Part shown: positions 14,844-50,950 of the stretch, one piece after another
How the letters are laid out: every line of letters starts with the position of its first letter
Numbering within the stretch: position 1 is the first letter of the stretch
The notes under the pieces: generated by a model
What the model was told of the DNA's origin: nothing
Seen by the model: only the letters and a program-made list of their open reading frames with translations
Databases searched by the model: none
Position numbers and translations under genes: made by a program
DNA from: a virus
Taxonomy: Duplodnaviria; Caudoviricetes
Direction: 5' to 3' (one strand)
Virus record (IMG/VR): IMGVR_UViG_3300031998_000008
Coordinates: 128,001-192,000 of that record
Length of the DNA stretch: 64,000 bases

Positions 14844-14952
14844 AACAAAATGTATTTTATTATAATAATATACGCTTTTTTTGCCAAAAATCAAAACATT
14901 TGTTTTTATTGTTAATTTTTTGTACATTAGCCTTAACAAGAAATTTTTGAAT

Positions 14953-17535
14953 ATGGCAGAGATTGAAAAAAATGCTAACGAACAATCATTTGACAACATT
15001 AATATGTCAAATGAACTTGAAGAACTTTTGGATTTTATTATTAACGATTTATCTAAGGAATTACCGACATTAACTGTTGATTTGAATTATTTCCTTCTTG
15101 GGTCTTTAGTGCAGAAGAATAACAATCTGTATAAGAGGCTTGAGATGTGTATGATGACAACAACAATGAATGCCATATATAATTCTTTCTATCAAGTTGT
15201 TTCTTCAAAGGCTCTTAGTGCTGTAAAAAGCAATAGAAAGACTAATTTTGACAATAAATTTTATGAAATAGTAAACAAGGCAAGTGAAATAGCAAAGGAA
15301 CTTGAAAGTGAAGAGGTGACTTCAGAACACGTATTCCTTGCTATTTTAGGAGATAGTGATGATGGAAACAAAATCAGGAAAGTTTTCAACAAAGCCGGCC
15401 TTACTTATGGTGTTTTCAAAGACAAACTCCAAGACAGCTTGGTAAGTTTCGATGAAAATGGTATTATGAGTGGAAATCTTGGGAACGGAATGGGCGTTAA
15501 GATTATCCAAGCAAAAACTCCTGAGGAAGCAATGCGTAAGATGAAAGAAAGCATTGAAAACGAAATGAATCAGATGACTGGTGGTAAGAAATCAAGCAAG
15601 ACTTCATCAAAAACACCTTATATAGATGAATATTGCACTGATTTGAATGCTTTGGCTGAAAGCGGTAAGATGGAGCCAATCATTGGCCGTGAGAAAGAAA
15701 TTGCACAAATCATTAGAATCCTTGGTAGGAAAAACAAGAACAACACAATTCTTGTTGGCGGCGAGGGCGTTGGTAAAACAGCAATTGGTGAAAGTATTGC
15801 CTATAAGATTGTTAATGGCGAAGTTCCTGAATTTTTACTTAACAAGAGGGTTGTTTCACTTGACATGACTGCTATGATGGCAGGTACTACTCTTAGAGGT
15901 ATGTTTGAGGAACGTGTAAAGGGCGTTATGGATGAAATCAAGAAATATAGGAATTTCATTTTATTCATGGATAATATTGGTGCAATTCTTGCTGATAAAG
16001 GTAAGAATGACTATGAAATCTCTTCAATGCTTTCACGTGGTCTTGAAACCGGTGAAATCCAAGTAATCGGTACTTCAGATTTTGCTTCTTATAGAAAGAC
16101 ATTCGATAAAGACCCAAGTTTGGCAAGACGTTTCCAAAAGATTATTGTTGAATCACCAAGTATTGATGAATCAATTAGAATTTTGGATGGCATTAAGGAA
16201 TCATATGAGACCTACCATAAGGTTAGATATGAAGATGGTGTTATCGAAGCATGTGTAAAACTTGCGGATAAGTACATTTCAGAACGTAATTTGCCTGATT
16301 CAGCAATTGATATTCTTGATGAAATTGGTTCATTGAATGGTACATCAAACGAGCCTACTGCTCTTAAAGAACTGAAGGCCCGTATTACGTTATTTGAGGA
16401 TAAGATGGATGAAGCAAAGAGGGAAAAGGATTATGAAAGTGCTGATGCTATTTCAAAAGAAATTATTTTGTTGAAGAAACAATATAACGAGGAAAAGGAT
16501 AGTTACGAAAAGGACCGTAACGAAAACCATATTCCTGTAACTGTTAATGACATTCTTAACCTTATTTCAGTTAAAACAGGTATTCCTGTAAGCAATCTTA
16601 ATTCAGATGACAAGAAGAAATTGTCAGGAATGAATGATAGGCTTAAAGAAAGTGTTGTTGGTCAAGATGAGGCAATTGACACTGTTTGCAAGGCGTTGAA
16701 ACGTAATAGAGTTGGCCTTAGCAATAATGGTTGCATGTATAGTTACATGGCAATTGGTAAAACAGGTACAGGTAAAACCTTGTTGGCAAAGAAACTTGCT
16801 AAAGAGTTATTCGGTGATGAAAAGGCCCTTGTTAGATTTGATATGTCTGAATATTCAGATAAGGTTTCAGTAAACAAACTTATTGGCTCAAATCCTGGTT
16901 ATGTTGGATATGAAGAGGGTGGACAATTGACTGAAACAATCAAAAATAAGAAACATTGCGTTCTTTTGCTTGATGAAATTGAAAAGGCTGACCCTGAGGT
17001 TTACAACATTTTCTTACAGGTTCTTGATGAAGGATTCTTAACAGATAACTCTGGCCAGCGTGTGGATTTCAAGAATGTAATCGTGGTATTTACATCAAAC
17101 GTTGGTGCAAAGGCTGCAAGTGAATTTGGTAAAGGAATCGGATTTGCTAACGATGAGGAAGAAAATACAAAGAGAATCTTGTTGAAACAACTTAAAAATA
17201 GATTTCCACCTGAATTTCTTAACCGTATCAATGATGTTATATACTTTAACACATTGAATGACGATGACCTTAATTCAATTATTAAGATTGAAATTGGTAA
17301 ACTTGAGAGCAGGTTAAATGGAATGGGATATTCCATGGAATATGACAACGATGTTGTTCAATACATTCTTAAAGAAATACAAGATGAAAAAGACTTCGGT
17401 GCAAGACCTATTATTAGGTGTATTCAAGAAAACATCGAAGACAAACTAACGGACAAACTTCTTGAGAATGATTACGAAAAAGGATATGTGTTCAAAATTT
17501 CTTGTCCTGAATTAAGTGCCGTAACAGTCGCTTAA
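14953..17535 (+). CDS. clpC: ClpC/ClpB-family AAA+ chaperone
   Basis: Clp-N-like region, two AAA modules (GGEGVGKT, GKTGTGKT), RFDMSEY, LIGSNPGYVGYEEGG, LLDEIEKA, FGARP. Confidence 0.93.
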   Translation: MAEIEKNANEQSFDNINMSNELEELLDFIINDLSKELPTLTVDLNYFLLGSLVQKNNNLYKRLEMCMMTTTMNAIYNSFYQVVSSKALSAVKSNRKTNFDNKFYEIVNKASEIAKELESEEVTSEHVFLAILGDSDDGNKIRKVFNKAGLTYGVFKDKLQDSLVSFDENGIMSGNLGNGMGVKIIQAKTPEEAMRKMKESIENEMNQMTGGKKSSKTSSKTPYIDEYCTDLNALAESGKMEPIIGREKEIAQIIRILGRKNKNNTILVGGEGVGKTAIGESIAYKIVNGEVPEFLLNKRVVSLDMTAMMAGTTLRGMFEERVKGVMDEIKKYRNFILFMDNIGAILADKGKNDYEISSMLSRGLETGEIQVIGTSDFASYRKTFDKDPSLARRFQKIIVESPSIDESIRILDGIKESYETYHKVRYEDGVIEACVKLADKYISERNLPDSAIDILDEIGSLNGTSNEPTALKELKARITLFEDKMDEAKREKDYESADAISKEIILLKKQYNEEKDSYEKDRNENHIPVTVNDILNLISVKTGIPVSNLNSDDKKKLSGMNDRLKESVVGQDEAIDTVCKALKRNRVGLSNNGCMYSYMAIGKTGTGKTLLAKKLAKELFGDEKALVRFDMSEYSDKVSVNKLIGSNPGYVGYEEGGQLTETIKNKKHCVLLLDEIEKADPEVYNIFLQVLDEGFLTDNSGQRVDFKNVIVVFTSNVGAKAASEFGKGIGFANDEEENTKRILLKQLKNRFPPEFLNRINDVIYFNTLNDDDLNSIIKIEIGKLESRLNGMGYSMEYDNDVVQYILKEIQDEKDFGARPIIRCIQENIEDKLTDKLLENDYEKGYVFKISCPELSAVTVA

Positions 17536-36295: not shown

Positions 36296-36961
36296 ATGAA
36301 CGAAGATTTTAGAAAATTTGCAGTTAGCCAAGGTATTAACGGAAATACCTTTGATGCCTATAAAAAGGCTACAAACGGAATTATAAGTCCAACAATTCTT
36401 GAGGAAAGACATCTCAATGTTGCAACAATGGACATCTTTTCAAGATTAATGTTCGATAGAATTATTGTTCTTGGTACTGAAATTAATGAAGATGTTGCTA
36501 ACATTGTAACTTCTCAATTAATGTATTTGAATTCAGTTGATTCTGATTCAGATATTAAGTTGTTCATCAATTCTCCTGGCGGAAGTGTTATTGATGGCCT
36601 TGCAATCTATGACATTATGAACTGGGTTGAGCCTGATGTTGCAACATACACAATGGGTATGGCTGCTTCTATGGGTTCTATTTTGCTTTCTTCAGGTGCA
36701 AAAGGTAAAAGATATTCCTTACCGCACAGCAAAATTATGATTCACCAAGTAAGCGGTTACGCAGGTGGTCAATATTCAGACATTAAGATTTGGGCTGAAG
36801 AAATTAAGAAGCACCAAAGCGAACTTTACAACATCCTTGCTGAAAACACAGGAAAATCATTTGAGCAAATTGAAAAGGATGCTGACCGTGACCATTGGTT
36901 CACAGCAAAAGAGGCTCTTGAATATGGCCTTATTGACGAAATAATTGAGAAAAAGAAATGA
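36296..36961 (+). CDS. clpP: ATP-dependent Clp protease proteolytic subunit
   Basis: DIFSRLMFDRII, INSPGGSV, GMAASMGS, IMIHQ, DRDHWFTAKEALEYGLID. Confidence 0.96.
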   Translation: MNEDFRKFAVSQGINGNTFDAYKKATNGIISPTILEERHLNVATMDIFSRLMFDRIIVLGTEINEDVANIVTSQLMYLNSVDSDSDIKLFINSPGGSVIDGLAIYDIMNWVEPDVATYTMGMAASMGSILLSSGAKGKRYSLPHSKIMIHQVSGYAGGQYSDIKIWAEEIKKHQSELYNILAENTGKSFEQIEKDADRDHWFTAKEALEYGLIDEIIEKKK

Positions 36962-39075: not shown

Positions 39076-39146
39076 GGTTCATTGGGCCATCGGTTGGCCA
39101 GGCGTCTCTAAAACGCTAAAGAAGGGTTCGACTCCCTTATGAGCCG
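39076..39146 (+). tRNA. Amber suppressor tRNA (anticodon CTA)
   Basis: Cloverleaf GGTTCAT/ATGAGCC; anticodon arm GGCGT-CTCTAAA-ACGCT; T loop TTCGACT. Confidence 0.85.
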
Positions 39147-39176
39147 CTACCAATAAGATTAAACAAATACTATGAA

Positions 39177-46045: not shown

Positions 46046-46615
46046 ATGAAAAAGAATTTTAGAACAAAAGAAGAATATATTGAGGCTGCAAAGATGGCTC
46101 ATAGTGTTGCTGAAATGTGCAGATTACTTGGTAGAAATCCATGTGGCGCTGGATATTATATTATGAAAAAGAAAATCAAAGAATATGATATAGATATAAG
46201 TCATTTTCTTGGGCAAGGATGGAATAAGGGTTTAAAGATGAACCCTAATGAGGGAAAAATTAAAAAATTAGAAGAAATATTAGTAGAAAATTCCACATAT
46301 GCTAATTGTAATTGTTTAAAAAAAAGGTTATTAAAAGAAGGTGTTAAAGAATATAGGTGTGAGTGTTGTGGGTTGACTGAGTGGAACGGTAAAGAAATTC
46401 CTTTAGAAATACATCACATAAATGGTGTTAGAAATGATAACAGGATTGAAAATCTTCAATTATTATGCCCAAATTGCCATGCTCAAACAGATAATTATTG
46501 TTCTAAAAATATGAAGAATGGCGGAGTGGTGGAATTGGTAGACACGACTGTCCCAAAAGCAGTTGCCGAGAGGCGTGTGGGTCCGACTCCCACCTCCGCT
46601 ACAGAACTTAAATAA
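46046..46615 (+). CDS. HNH endonuclease (tRNA-array associated)
   Basis: CECCG..LEIHHING..DNRIENLQLLCPNCH. Confidence 0.88.
   Translation: MKKNFRTKEEYIEAAKMAHSVAEMCRLLGRNPCGAGYYIMKKKIKEYDIDISHFLGQGWNKGLKMNPNEGKIKKLEEILVENSTYANCNCLKKRLLKEGVKEYRCECCGLTEWNGKEIPLEIHHINGVRNDNRIENLQLLCPNCHAQTDNYCSKNMKNGGVVELVDTTVPKAVAERRVGPTPTSATELK
46520..46601 (+). tRNA. tRNA-Leu(CAA), overlapped by the HNH ORF 3' end
   Basis: ACTGT-CCCAAAA-GCAGT, variable arm. Confidence 0.85.
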
Positions 46616-46633: not shown

Positions 46634-47269
46634 ATGAAGAAAGTATTTATTTTATTGATGGCAATTTCTTTGATGTTTTCATTCAATTCTTGCGATTGGT
46701 TTAACAAGAACAAGGATAATGAGAAAAAAGAAATTATCGTGGAAAACGTAGTTAAAGCAGACAGAGACTACATGACAGAAAATTATGGTAATACCTACGT
46801 ATGGTATGAAACACAAATTTCTTTGAATGACTATCTTGATGAAGAATGCGATGGCTCATTCTCAGAGATTGTAGATGTGTTCCAAGTTATCACTACAACT
46901 GACAGTGTAACATTTGATACCAAAGTAATTAAGATGTACCATGTTGCTGATTCTTCATACATTGAAGAAATTGAAGGTTTCTGGGTTGAAGACATGAATA
47001 TGAACGATGAAATCATTTCAGTCACTTACAAACAAGCATTCCAACTTATTAATGAAGTAAACTTCCCAAAACCACATTCAAAGAATTGTGTTTTGAGAAA
47101 AGAAGTTGGCCCAATTGAAGCTAATCCTCAGTATATCTTTGGCAACATTGAATCACAATTGTATGTTGATGCATTGACAGGTGATGTAACTGATGAAAGC
47201 CCAAGTTTCTGTGACGAAGTTATTGAAAACGACAGCATCGAAGATGTAAACACTCAATTTGGTGAGTAG
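46634..47269 (+). CDS. Putative lipoprotein
   Basis: Signal peptide ending FNSC; C-terminal YVDALTGDV (PepSY-like). Confidence 0.6.
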   Translation: MKKVFILLMAISLMFSFNSCDWFNKNKDNEKKEIIVENVVKADRDYMTENYGNTYVWYETQISLNDYLDEECDGSFSEIVDVFQVITTTDSVTFDTKVIKMYHVADSSYIEEIEGFWVEDMNMNDEIISVTYKQAFQLINEVNFPKPHSKNCVLRKEVGPIEANPQYIFGNIESQLYVDALTGDVTDESPSFCDEVIENDSIEDVNTQFGE

Positions 47270-49163: not shown

Positions 49164-49236
49164 GGGGAGTTCATTTAGCGGTTTAGGATGCAGGTTCGAC
49201 AGACCTGTCACTATGGTTCGATTCCATAACACCCCA
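49164..49236 (+). tRNA. tRNA-Val(GAC), atypical loop
   Basis: CAGGT-TCGACAG-ACCTG. Confidence 0.7.
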
Positions 49237-49240
49237 CAAT

Positions 49241-49592
49241 CGGATGTTGTTGATATTCAAAGAAAAGTCCGTAAGACGAGGGTTCGACTCCCTCCGGGTC
49301 CACCATATTGGGTGCGCCATGTTGAGTACCAACCATACTAGTTATACGGTTCTTATGATTCATGGTACAATACCAAGTAATTTGAAAAACTTGGTTCGGG
49401 TTTAAAATTGGGGTTCAACTCCCTGGCATCCAACAACTTTCAAACATGGGCCCGCTTGGATTTGATTGCGAATGAATACAATGGAAGGAGATATTCGAGA
49501 AGCCAATAAATGGCAATGAAAATTATGCATATGCAGTTGCAGCCTAAGCTAGGTTAGCAAATGCAGGTTGGCAGCGAACCAAATCGCTGCAA
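49241..49592 (+). ncRNA. ssrA: Permuted two-piece tmRNA: acceptor piece ~49241-49305, coding piece 49448-~49592, tag GNENYAYAVAA*
   Basis: GGGCCCG/CGGGTCC-ACCA with G3.U70; T arm GAGGG-TTCGACT-CCCTC; P2 pairing between the pieces; ATAAAT|GGC resume site, tag 49512-49547. Confidence 0.88.
49308..49433 (+). ncRNA. tRNA-like RNA occupying the tmRNA intervening segment
   Basis: TTGGGTGC/GCATCCAA, ACCAAGT/ACTTGGT arm, GGGG-TTCAACT-CCCT. Confidence 0.5.
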
Positions 49593-49594
49593 AT

Positions 49595-49667
49595 GGCGGG
49601 TTCGTATAATAGGTTAGTACGCCACCCTCTCAAGGTGGAAATAGAGGTTCGAACCCACTACTCGCTA
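49595..49667 (+). tRNA. tRNA-Glu(CTC)
   Basis: CCACC-CTCTCAA-GGTGG. Confidence 0.85.
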
Positions 49668-49677
49668 CAAAATACAT

Positions 49678-50537: not shown

Positions 50538-50664
50538 GGAGGTATAGTTTAGTGGTAGAATGACGTAAAATGAAAATAGCATTTTGGTCATTTAAAAATG
50601 TTAACAGCATATGAGTTCAATGCCTTTCCCGCCGTTGATGTAGGTTCGATTCCTGCTGCCTCCG
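50538..50664 (+). tRNA. tRNA(TTC) with ACAGCA mini-intron 50566-50621
   Basis: Spliced arm GACGGC-CTTTCCC-GCCGTT. Confidence 0.72.
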
Positions 50665-50818: not shown

Positions 50819-50950
50819 TGGCCAGTAGCTCAGTTGGCAGAGCAACGGAATGAAAAGAAAACGCATTTTGGCCTAAAGATGTTAACAGCAATGAAAAATT
50901 TTCGACTGTTAATCCGTGGGCCGCAGGTTCGAGTCCTGCCTGACCAGCCA
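50819..50950 (+). tRNA. tRNA-Asn(GTT) with ACAGCA mini-intron ~50848-50903
   Basis: Spliced arm ACGGA-CTGTTAA-TCCGT, identical to the intact Asn gene at 48219; encoded CCA. Confidence 0.85.

Follow-up and report, generated by a model that had tools for sequence, protein, structure and literature searches.

Does the tRNA island of a huge rumen phage encode a genuine two-piece tmRNA, and if it does, where did the permuted gene order come from and what is the tRNA-shaped unit that lies between the two pieces? Two-piece tmRNA is the standard example of a non-coding RNA whose gene has undergone circular permutation. We analysed the locus within a window of 64,000 nucleotides, this being the whole stretch of DNA under study, which belongs to a 148,072-base IMG/VR virus record with a CheckV completeness of 41%; the G+C content is 34.6%. 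A preliminary description had proposed a permuted two-piece tmRNA in a probable Bacteroidota phage, with a tRNA-like RNA as its intervening segment, and had ascribed the gene to an independent permutation event.

A permuted tmRNA gene within the tRNA island

Genes for a T4-type portal, the large terminase and the major head protein (PHROG family matches) are located just upstream, and ARAGORN predicts 34 tRNA genes between 39076 and 53061, with the permuted tmRNA among them. ARAGORN places this tmRNA at 49213-49638, with the tag GNENYAYAVAA* encoded at 49512-49547, while the Rfam model RF04321 (tmRNA_permuted) matches 49243-49547 with 63.4 bits against a gathering score of 47. The two detectors are independent and agree on the permuted form, which ARAGORN reports as tmRNA*. 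The presence of a permuted two-piece tmRNA at this locus, with the tag and the position proposed in the preliminary description, is confirmed.

The gene lies on the plus strand between two tRNA genes, tRNA-Val(GAC) at 49164-49237 (ARAGORN; Rfam tRNA 41 bits) and tRNA-Glu(CTC) at 49595-49668 (ARAGORN; Rfam tRNA 53.2 bits), and all its parts have the same orientation. The acceptor piece comes first (49240-49305) and was delimited by the RF04321 alignment, the ARAGORN 3' tRNA domain and covariation among 7 phage sequences, its 5' end being the probable one. Within it are the 3' strands of helix P2 (about 49243-49274), and, as read from the sequence, the T arm (49278-49294), the 3' acceptor strand (49295-49301), the discriminator A (49302) and an encoded CCA (49303-49305). 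An intervening segment, or spacer, of 142 nt (49306-49447) extends from the CCA to G1 of the coding piece and is presumably removed during maturation. The coding piece (49448-49594) was defined by ARAGORN, RF04321 and family alignments, with its likely 3' end taken from the start of tRNA-Glu. It begins with the 5' acceptor strand (49448-49454), and also contains the D-loop analogue, the 5' strands of P2 (about 49466-49499), the resume codon GGC (49512-49514), the tag reading frame GNENYAYAVAA with its stop codon TAA (49512-49547; ARAGORN) and a 3' hairpin (49571-49590).

The first 7 bases of the coding piece pair perfectly with the 3' acceptor strand, including G3.U70. The tRNA-like domain therefore comprises a 7-bp acceptor stem with G3.U70, a T arm, a discriminator A and a CCA end, and the tag frame, which has no start codon, closes with a hydrophobic Ala-rich C-terminus followed by a stop codon and is conserved in relatives. 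Besides this phage, only G072 among the family members described below encodes the CCA, the others having CTA, CAA or CGA. CCA is likewise unencoded in most tmRNA genes of the clade (loci L093, L122, L118, L163 and L110-L114), and nearly all the tRNA genes checked in the window are also without it, with the discriminator then followed by CAA, CTA or CGA.

A family of permuted tmRNA genes in related rumen huge phages

Close relatives of the large terminase are numerous in rumen-type metagenomes, where they are encoded on contigs of 300-410 kb. We used RF04321 to scan 26 related IMG/VR records, of which 19 were also scanned with RF00023. The closest relative, G005, whose terminase is 93% identical, carries a permuted tmRNA (65 bits) with the tag GNENYAYAYAAA*. 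One-piece tmRNAs, scoring 53-110 bits, were found in G002 and G007 (terminase identity of 71% and 78%, respectively) and in G009-G012 (about 49%), and L119, L156, L161 and L166 also belong to clade relatives with the one-piece form. Three complete related genomes had neither form in the RF04321 and RF00023 scans. A second set, comprising 57 loci retrieved through a protein encoded in the tRNA island, contributed further permuted genes, in G030 (56.4 bits), G063 and G064 (50 bits), G072 (63 bits) and G027 (ARAGORN only), as well as one-piece tmRNAs in four further records. Two more permuted genes came from a metagenome scan (L106) and from a pattern scan (L334; 37 bits, with a long spacer). Homologous permuted genes are thereby present in 7 related records, and the family comprises at least 8 rumen huge-phage records. 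Since the permuted gene is shared by the family and is not peculiar to this phage, the permutation event is placed in an ancestor. The neighbouring tRNA-Val is also present in G005, L106 and L334, with the L334 copy being 100% identical. Within this subclade the permuted gene has tRNA neighbours on either side.

Some other searches returned no relatives: exact-pattern scans with the acceptor end yielded tRNAs only, a pattern scan with the 5' end of the coding piece had zero matches, and a single-protein search with the helicase found zero relatives.

The motifs common to the permuted genes are the 5' half of the acceptor piece, P2, the surroundings of the resume codon and the 3' hairpin. The hairpin, which is present in the coding pieces of G005, G030, G027, G063 and G072 too, has CCAAA in its loop and a stem that varies in sequence with its pairing kept. 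An AGGTT motif is conserved just upstream of the hairpin and might pair with the loop, which would give a pseudoknot. In G072, a stretch of about 42 nt just before the acceptor piece (L174:1757-1800, minus strand) resembles a one-piece tRNA-like domain without its coding part, with a 6-bp terminal stem, a tmRNA-like D-loop analogue and a T arm.

Pairing between the two pieces and conservation of the tag

Covariation was counted on a curated alignment of 7 sequences. Its consensus fold comprises 31 pairs, which belong to the acceptor stem, three inter-piece segments of P2 and the T stem. Of all the cells in these pairs, 93.1% hold standard pairs, and in 19 of the 31 both sides have changed. As a control, the 3' partners were slid by -3 to +1 columns, whereupon the corresponding values dropped to 42-54% of cells paired and 3-7 double-change pairs. 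Even between this phage and its closest relative G005, acceptor pairs 6 and 7, one T-stem pair and three P2a pairs are changed on both sides and are still paired. G3.U70 is present in 7/7 aligned members. These data bear out the G3.U70 pair and the cross-piece P2 pairing of the preliminary description, which had been read from the sequence.

The same applies to the tag. G005, L106 and L334 all retain the frame, whose loss had been named as a ground for refuting the gene; synonymous third-base substitutions (AAT/AAC, GCA/GCT) and one additional Ala codon occur within it. The resume codon lies about 13 nt from P2 and, as judged by eye, is covered by a 4-bp hairpin. No PK1 between P2 and the resume codon was found in the consensus fold, the method being one that cannot predict pseudoknots. 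PK1 is replaceable in E. coli, and two-piece tmRNAs have fewer pseudoknots (PMC3968760).

The spacer and its tRNA look-alike

The spacers of the family are 17, 18, 24, 24, 69, 104, 142 and 238 nt long, and their contents are unrelated. Because both length and content vary in this manner, the spacer seems to be a tolerant slot in which the long inserts are probably secondary. In the present phage it contains a tRNA-like unit of 125 nt (49309-49433, plus strand). The unit can be drawn as a cloverleaf, in which the terminal stem is 7 bp long, the D-like stem of 4 bp closes a loop of 37 nt, and the anticodon-like stem of 7 bp carries a 10-nt loop with GAA in it. The T arm (49409-49425) has a canonical T loop, and the discriminator A is at 49433. 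In the alternative offered by the minimum-energy fold, the T loop is paired instead with a segment of the D-like insert (two copies known). The 3' 27 nt of the unit match the tRNA-Phe(GAA) genes of two related phages at 25/27 positions (E = 6e-5 in about 1 Mb of loci), and its T arm is identical to the tRNA-Phe T arm in L164 and L172.

The unit is missing from L106 and from the 24-nt spacer of G005. Since these closest relatives do without it, the unit is unneeded for tmRNA maturation, and from the comparison of the genes it is optional spacer cargo and not defining content. The tRNA-like RNA that the preliminary description saw as the intervening segment is thus present, but as an optional occupant of the segment, as the short spacer of G005 demonstrates. 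A copy of the same unit resides in the 238-nt spacer of L334 (L334:1211-1335, minus strand; 119/125 identical). Cloverleaf-like arms, a canonical T loop and compensatory change are all found for the unit, and the tRNA-like unit proposed for the 142-nt spacer stands on this conserved copy. The fold itself is genuine but weak when taken alone, its support being the copy in the second phage.

Two other explanations for the unit were considered and rejected. In G009-G012, the one-piece tmRNA is immediately preceded by tRNA-Ile(GAT), whose T arm agrees with that of the spacer unit at 15/15 positions, which would allow the unit to be a tRNA-Ile relic of a duplication of tRNA-Ile and tmRNA; this was rejected because most spacers are short and tRNA-Phe matches better (25/27). 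The other possibility was that the unit provides a site for RNase P, located 3 nt downstream of the encoded CCA, but this is not general, as the L334 unit is located 98 nt further downstream and the CCA there is unencoded. The spacer of L334 also holds a second structured stretch of 98 nt before the tRNA look-alike (L334:1336-1433, minus strand), with an 8-bp closing stem, a separate 5-bp hairpin and a folding z-score of -2.25.

Origin of the permutation

The three older lineage models do not claim the gene. RF01849 (alpha) gave 14.4 bits against a cut-off of 50, RF01850 (beta) 32.2 bits against a cut-off of 84, and RF01851 (cyanobacteria) had no match at the locus (cut-off of 70). True alpha-type genes from the Pseudomonadota sample scored 113-162 bits on RF04321 and 55-81 bits on the beta model, and since they thus exceed the phage gene on the beta model, the 32 bits of the latter do not indicate a special beta tie. 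No beta-type gene over threshold was found in the sample of 151 Pseudomonadota, and beta and cyanobacterial genes were compared through Rfam models only. The 18 alpha-type genes differ from the phage gene in having another D-loop analogue, a non-canonical T loop and ANDN tags, and their tRNA-like domain is 47% identical to the phage domain.

Where, then, does the resemblance of the phage gene lie? The 5' motif of the G005 coding piece (GGG, six bases, and a 13-nt D-loop/P2a motif) was searched in one genome per species across 185,579 species, and at least 120 stretches matched. Among the 80 matches listed, nearly all are from Bacteroidota, and at least 62 of the 80 are located exactly at the 5' end of a one-piece tmRNA called by ARAGORN. 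The tags of these motif-matched one-piece tmRNAs include GENNYALAA, GETSYAFAA, GNNYAFAA and GNYNYSYAC, and rumen Bacteroidales MAGs account for several of them. As the Bacteroidota reference set was picked by the G005 motif, the 5' comparison is biased. Judged by the 3' tRNA-like domain alone, Bacteroidota (0.77) and other one-piece tmRNAs (0.74) are not told apart. Significant similarity of the permuted family to any of the one-piece tmRNAs compared does not extend past the tRNA-like domain and the resume region, and for that reason no particular one-piece gene can be singled out as the ancestor. A 15-nt motif that the G007 one-piece tmRNA seemed by eye to share with the permuted acceptor pieces was discarded, as its alignment scores did not exceed those of shuffled controls. 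Together, the 5' motif, the G-initial tag and the G027 SmpB (see below) indicate that the Bacteroidota affinity suggested at the outset is probably correct.

Comparison with known systems places these features in context. Like the alpha-proteobacterial two-piece tmRNA of the Caulobacter type (RF01849, RF04321; Keiler et al. 2000, as cited in PMC3968760), the phage gene has the order of acceptor piece, spacer and coding piece, joining by acceptor stem and P2, apparently reduced pseudoknots and a precursor presumably cut by tRNA-processing enzymes. It departs from that type in its canonical T loop and G-initial tags, in the fact that PK1 was not found, in a mature length of only about 213 nt and in its low score on RF01849. 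With the Bacteroidota one-piece tmRNA (RF00023; tags such as GENNYALAA, GETSYAFAA and GNNYAFAA) it shares the 5' acceptor/D-loop/P2a motif, the canonical T arm, G3.U70 and the G-x-N...Y-A-x-A-A style of tag, but it differs in its permuted order, in showing no evident PK1-PK4 and in its length, which is below 60% of that of the one-piece RNA, and significant similarity is restricted to the tRNA-like domain and the resume region. Bacteroidota cells almost all have the one-piece form: one survey counted 24,380 standard versus 48 permuted instances in this phylum, the 48 being undiscussed there (PMC11915505 Table S2).

Permuted tmRNAs are likewise known on large T4-like phages, namely the marine myophages (OM43 phage Melnitz, pelagimyophages and cyanophages; PMC9004378), whose genes group with the alpha-, beta- or cyanobacterial permuted lineages of their hosts, in contrast to the Bacteroidota affinities found here. 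[quoted passage not shown] The occurrence in alpha-proteobacteria, some beta-proteobacteria and some cyanobacteria, which the preliminary description gave as established, corresponds to the three bacterial lineages usually cited (PMC3968760) and omits both the phage two-piece tmRNAs (PMC9004378) and the spacer tRNA (PMC11915505). These two being known already, what is new here is probably a phage-borne origin of a known gene rearrangement, and not a new kind of system.

The failure of the lineage models, the Bacteroidota-type tRNA-like domain and tag, and the one-piece genes in clade relatives indicate independence. The best reading, which we infer from these comparisons, is that of an independent permutation, as had been proposed, with the qualification that it would be ancestral to the family of at least 8 records, probably in a phage ancestor, and not an event of this phage alone. 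The permuted order would have arisen once, from a Bacteroidota-type one-piece tmRNA, in the ancestor of the phage group and apart from the alpha-, beta- and cyanobacterial events.

Alternative explanations

The locus might not be a tmRNA at all, the call being due either to a chance tRNA 3' half with a short open frame or to a model artefact caused by a tRNA before a one-piece tmRNA. RF04321 does respond to such arrangements: on junctions between a tRNA-like 3' end and a one-piece tmRNA at L326-L330 (Pseudomonadota) it gave 50-65 bits, above its gathering score, and on the tRNA-Ile and tmRNA junctions at L094-L097 (G009-G012) it gave sub-threshold scores of the same kind (31-45 bits). Junctions of a tRNA with a one-piece tmRNA are, more generally, a source of false permuted calls. 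Here, however, there is perfect pairing between the upstream strand and the 5' end of the coding piece, these two vary in concert among relatives, P2 shows covariation, the frame of the tag is conserved, and a 3' tRNA-like domain is absent after the tag. The covariation of the upstream strand with the coding piece and the absence of that domain exclude the junction artefact at this locus, and with the covariation already contradicting it, the view that this is not a tmRNA is extremely improbable. A different objection concerns the origin, as the gene could have been acquired in permuted form, either from a source of alpha-, beta- or cyanobacterial type or from aquatic T4-like phages, with the tag and tRNA-like domain later converging on the Bacteroidota pattern; such convergence would fit the host's AlaRS, SmpB and proteases. 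This agrees with the grouping of the published phage two-piece tmRNAs with their hosts' permuted lineages (PMC9004378), with the T4-like portal, terminase and major head protein (PHROG) of this phage, with the beta model being the best of the three older ones (32.2 bits), and with the confinement of the Bacteroidota similarity to parts under host-fit selection. But the alpha, beta and cyanobacterial models all remain far under their cut-offs, unrelated alpha-type genes outscore the phage gene on the beta model, and the alpha-type tRNA-like domain and tags are clearly different. Moreover, blastn against 50,697 deposited phage records gave no match, and the same phage clade has one-piece tmRNAs with related G-initial tags. 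Capture of an already permuted gene is thus judged unlikely, and a separate permutation in a phage ancestor is retained.

The spacer unit, for its part, could be a decaying tRNA-Phe pseudogene or debris of recombination within the tRNA island, without a function. The Rfam tRNA model (RF00005) has no match on it at E<=1, ARAGORN makes no call under default settings and only a poor tRNA-Phe call at the 80% threshold, its D and anticodon loops are oversized, and its folding z-score is only -1.5; it is also missing in the closest relatives, and only two copies were found. The comparison of these two copies points in the other direction. They are 95.2% identical, versus 77-78% for the flanking tmRNA pieces, and all six differences are in stems, where one terminal-stem pair and one anticodon-like-stem pair are changed on both sides, one G-C pair becomes G.U and one loop-proximal pair is lost. 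Against the tRNA-Phe of related phages, two terminal-stem pairs are changed on both sides with pairing kept (by eye). This pattern of differences favours a structured RNA under selection over a pseudogene in decay, and an inert remnant is the less likely explanation.

Taken together, we consider it reasonably probable that the locus encodes a working two-piece tmRNA of a huge (about 360 kb) T4-like rumen phage, likely with Bacteroidota hosts, which goes back to a separate permutation that arose once and whose tolerant spacer slot holds a conserved tRNA-Phe-related look-alike. A bolder combined reading is put forward as tentative. It would see here a viral, fourth bacterial-type permutation, in which a captured Bacteroidota one-piece tmRNA became a minimal, pseudoknot-free two-piece form and spread in the phage family, with the spacer as a launch pad for small RNAs, in this phage a selected, self-acting tRNA-Phe mimic freed by tmRNA processing. 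As part of the same tentative reading, the mimic might, for example, lure a defence enzyme that targets tRNAs or be the partner of a tRNA-binding protein.

Predicted maturation and partner proteins

The tmRNA gene is inside the tRNA island and is probably co-transcribed with the neighbouring tRNAs, whose processing signals would also serve to mature it. Processing of the 3' end of tRNA-Val would free the 5' end of the acceptor piece of about 66 nt. RNase P would cut before G1 of the coding piece of about 147 nt and before tRNA-Glu, whereby the spacer would drop out, and the cut at the 5' end of tRNA-Glu would free the 3' end of the coding piece. The two pieces, whose pairing is seen in the covariation, would then associate through the 7-bp acceptor stem and the three-part P2 and rebuild the tRNA-like domain. 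By analogy with established tmRNA biology, G3.U70 and the discriminator A would direct charging by the host AlaRS. With SmpB, either the host's or a phage copy as in three relatives, the charged tmRNA would enter stalled ribosomes, and the addition of Ala and the tag would mark the proteins for Clp-type proteolysis. The spacer look-alike RNA would be released by the same tRNA-processing enzymes.

SmpB was found neither in this 41%-complete fragment nor in G005, and host SmpB is presumed to be available to the tmRNA of this phage. SmpB is encoded by G027 (L331:1477-1929), G072 (L332) and G063 (L333), all of which have a permuted tmRNA, with scores of 174-179 bits. The G027 SmpB is nearest to Bacteroidota (53% identity, 155 bits; 50% to a rumen Bacteroidales genome), its best match in Pseudomonadota being at 44% and 126 bits. 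On the degradation side, the window encodes a cellular-type ClpP (36296-36961, plus strand; PF00574 245.8 bits), which scores above the cut-offs of the NCBIfam ClpP subfamilies and above the phage head-protease model, and a ClpA/ClpB-type two-ring ATPase of 884 aa (14881-17535, plus strand), which is below all equivalog cut-offs. It is a matter of speculation that the phage ClpP, the Clp ATPase and the tmRNA form a phage-borne set for tagging and degradation.

If there was indeed a further origin of the two-piece form in a phage family, starting from a phylum with one-piece genes, this rearrangement would recur readily where tRNA-processing signals are dense. It would also mean that selection can maintain a tmRNA of about 213 nt that apparently lacks the customary ring of pseudoknots. 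The SmpB of some group members, together with the ClpP and Clp ATPase here, offers a concrete system for asking why huge phages bring ribosome rescue and tagging along, and the conserved look-alike in the spacer is a further sign that these tRNA islands encode many tRNA-shaped RNAs that do not decode.

Other features of the tRNA island

The island displays some further features. The tRNA at 39076-39147 (plus strand) has the anticodon CTA, which ARAGORN labels tRNA-Pyl and which is of the amber-suppressor type; the long ORFs obtained with the standard code speak against a general recoding of TAG in the window. Two Rfam tRNA matches, at 50538-50664 and 50819-50947 (plus strand; 43.7 and 49.3 bits), are 127-129 nt long, contain inserts of about 55 nt and are uncalled by ARAGORN. 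An HNH endonuclease ORF (46046-46615, plus strand; PF13392, PF01844) is also located within the tRNA island. The next ORF, at 46634-47269, lacks a Pfam match, hundreds of its homologues occur in rumen huge phages, and a protein identical to its product is encoded on a 367-kb contig.
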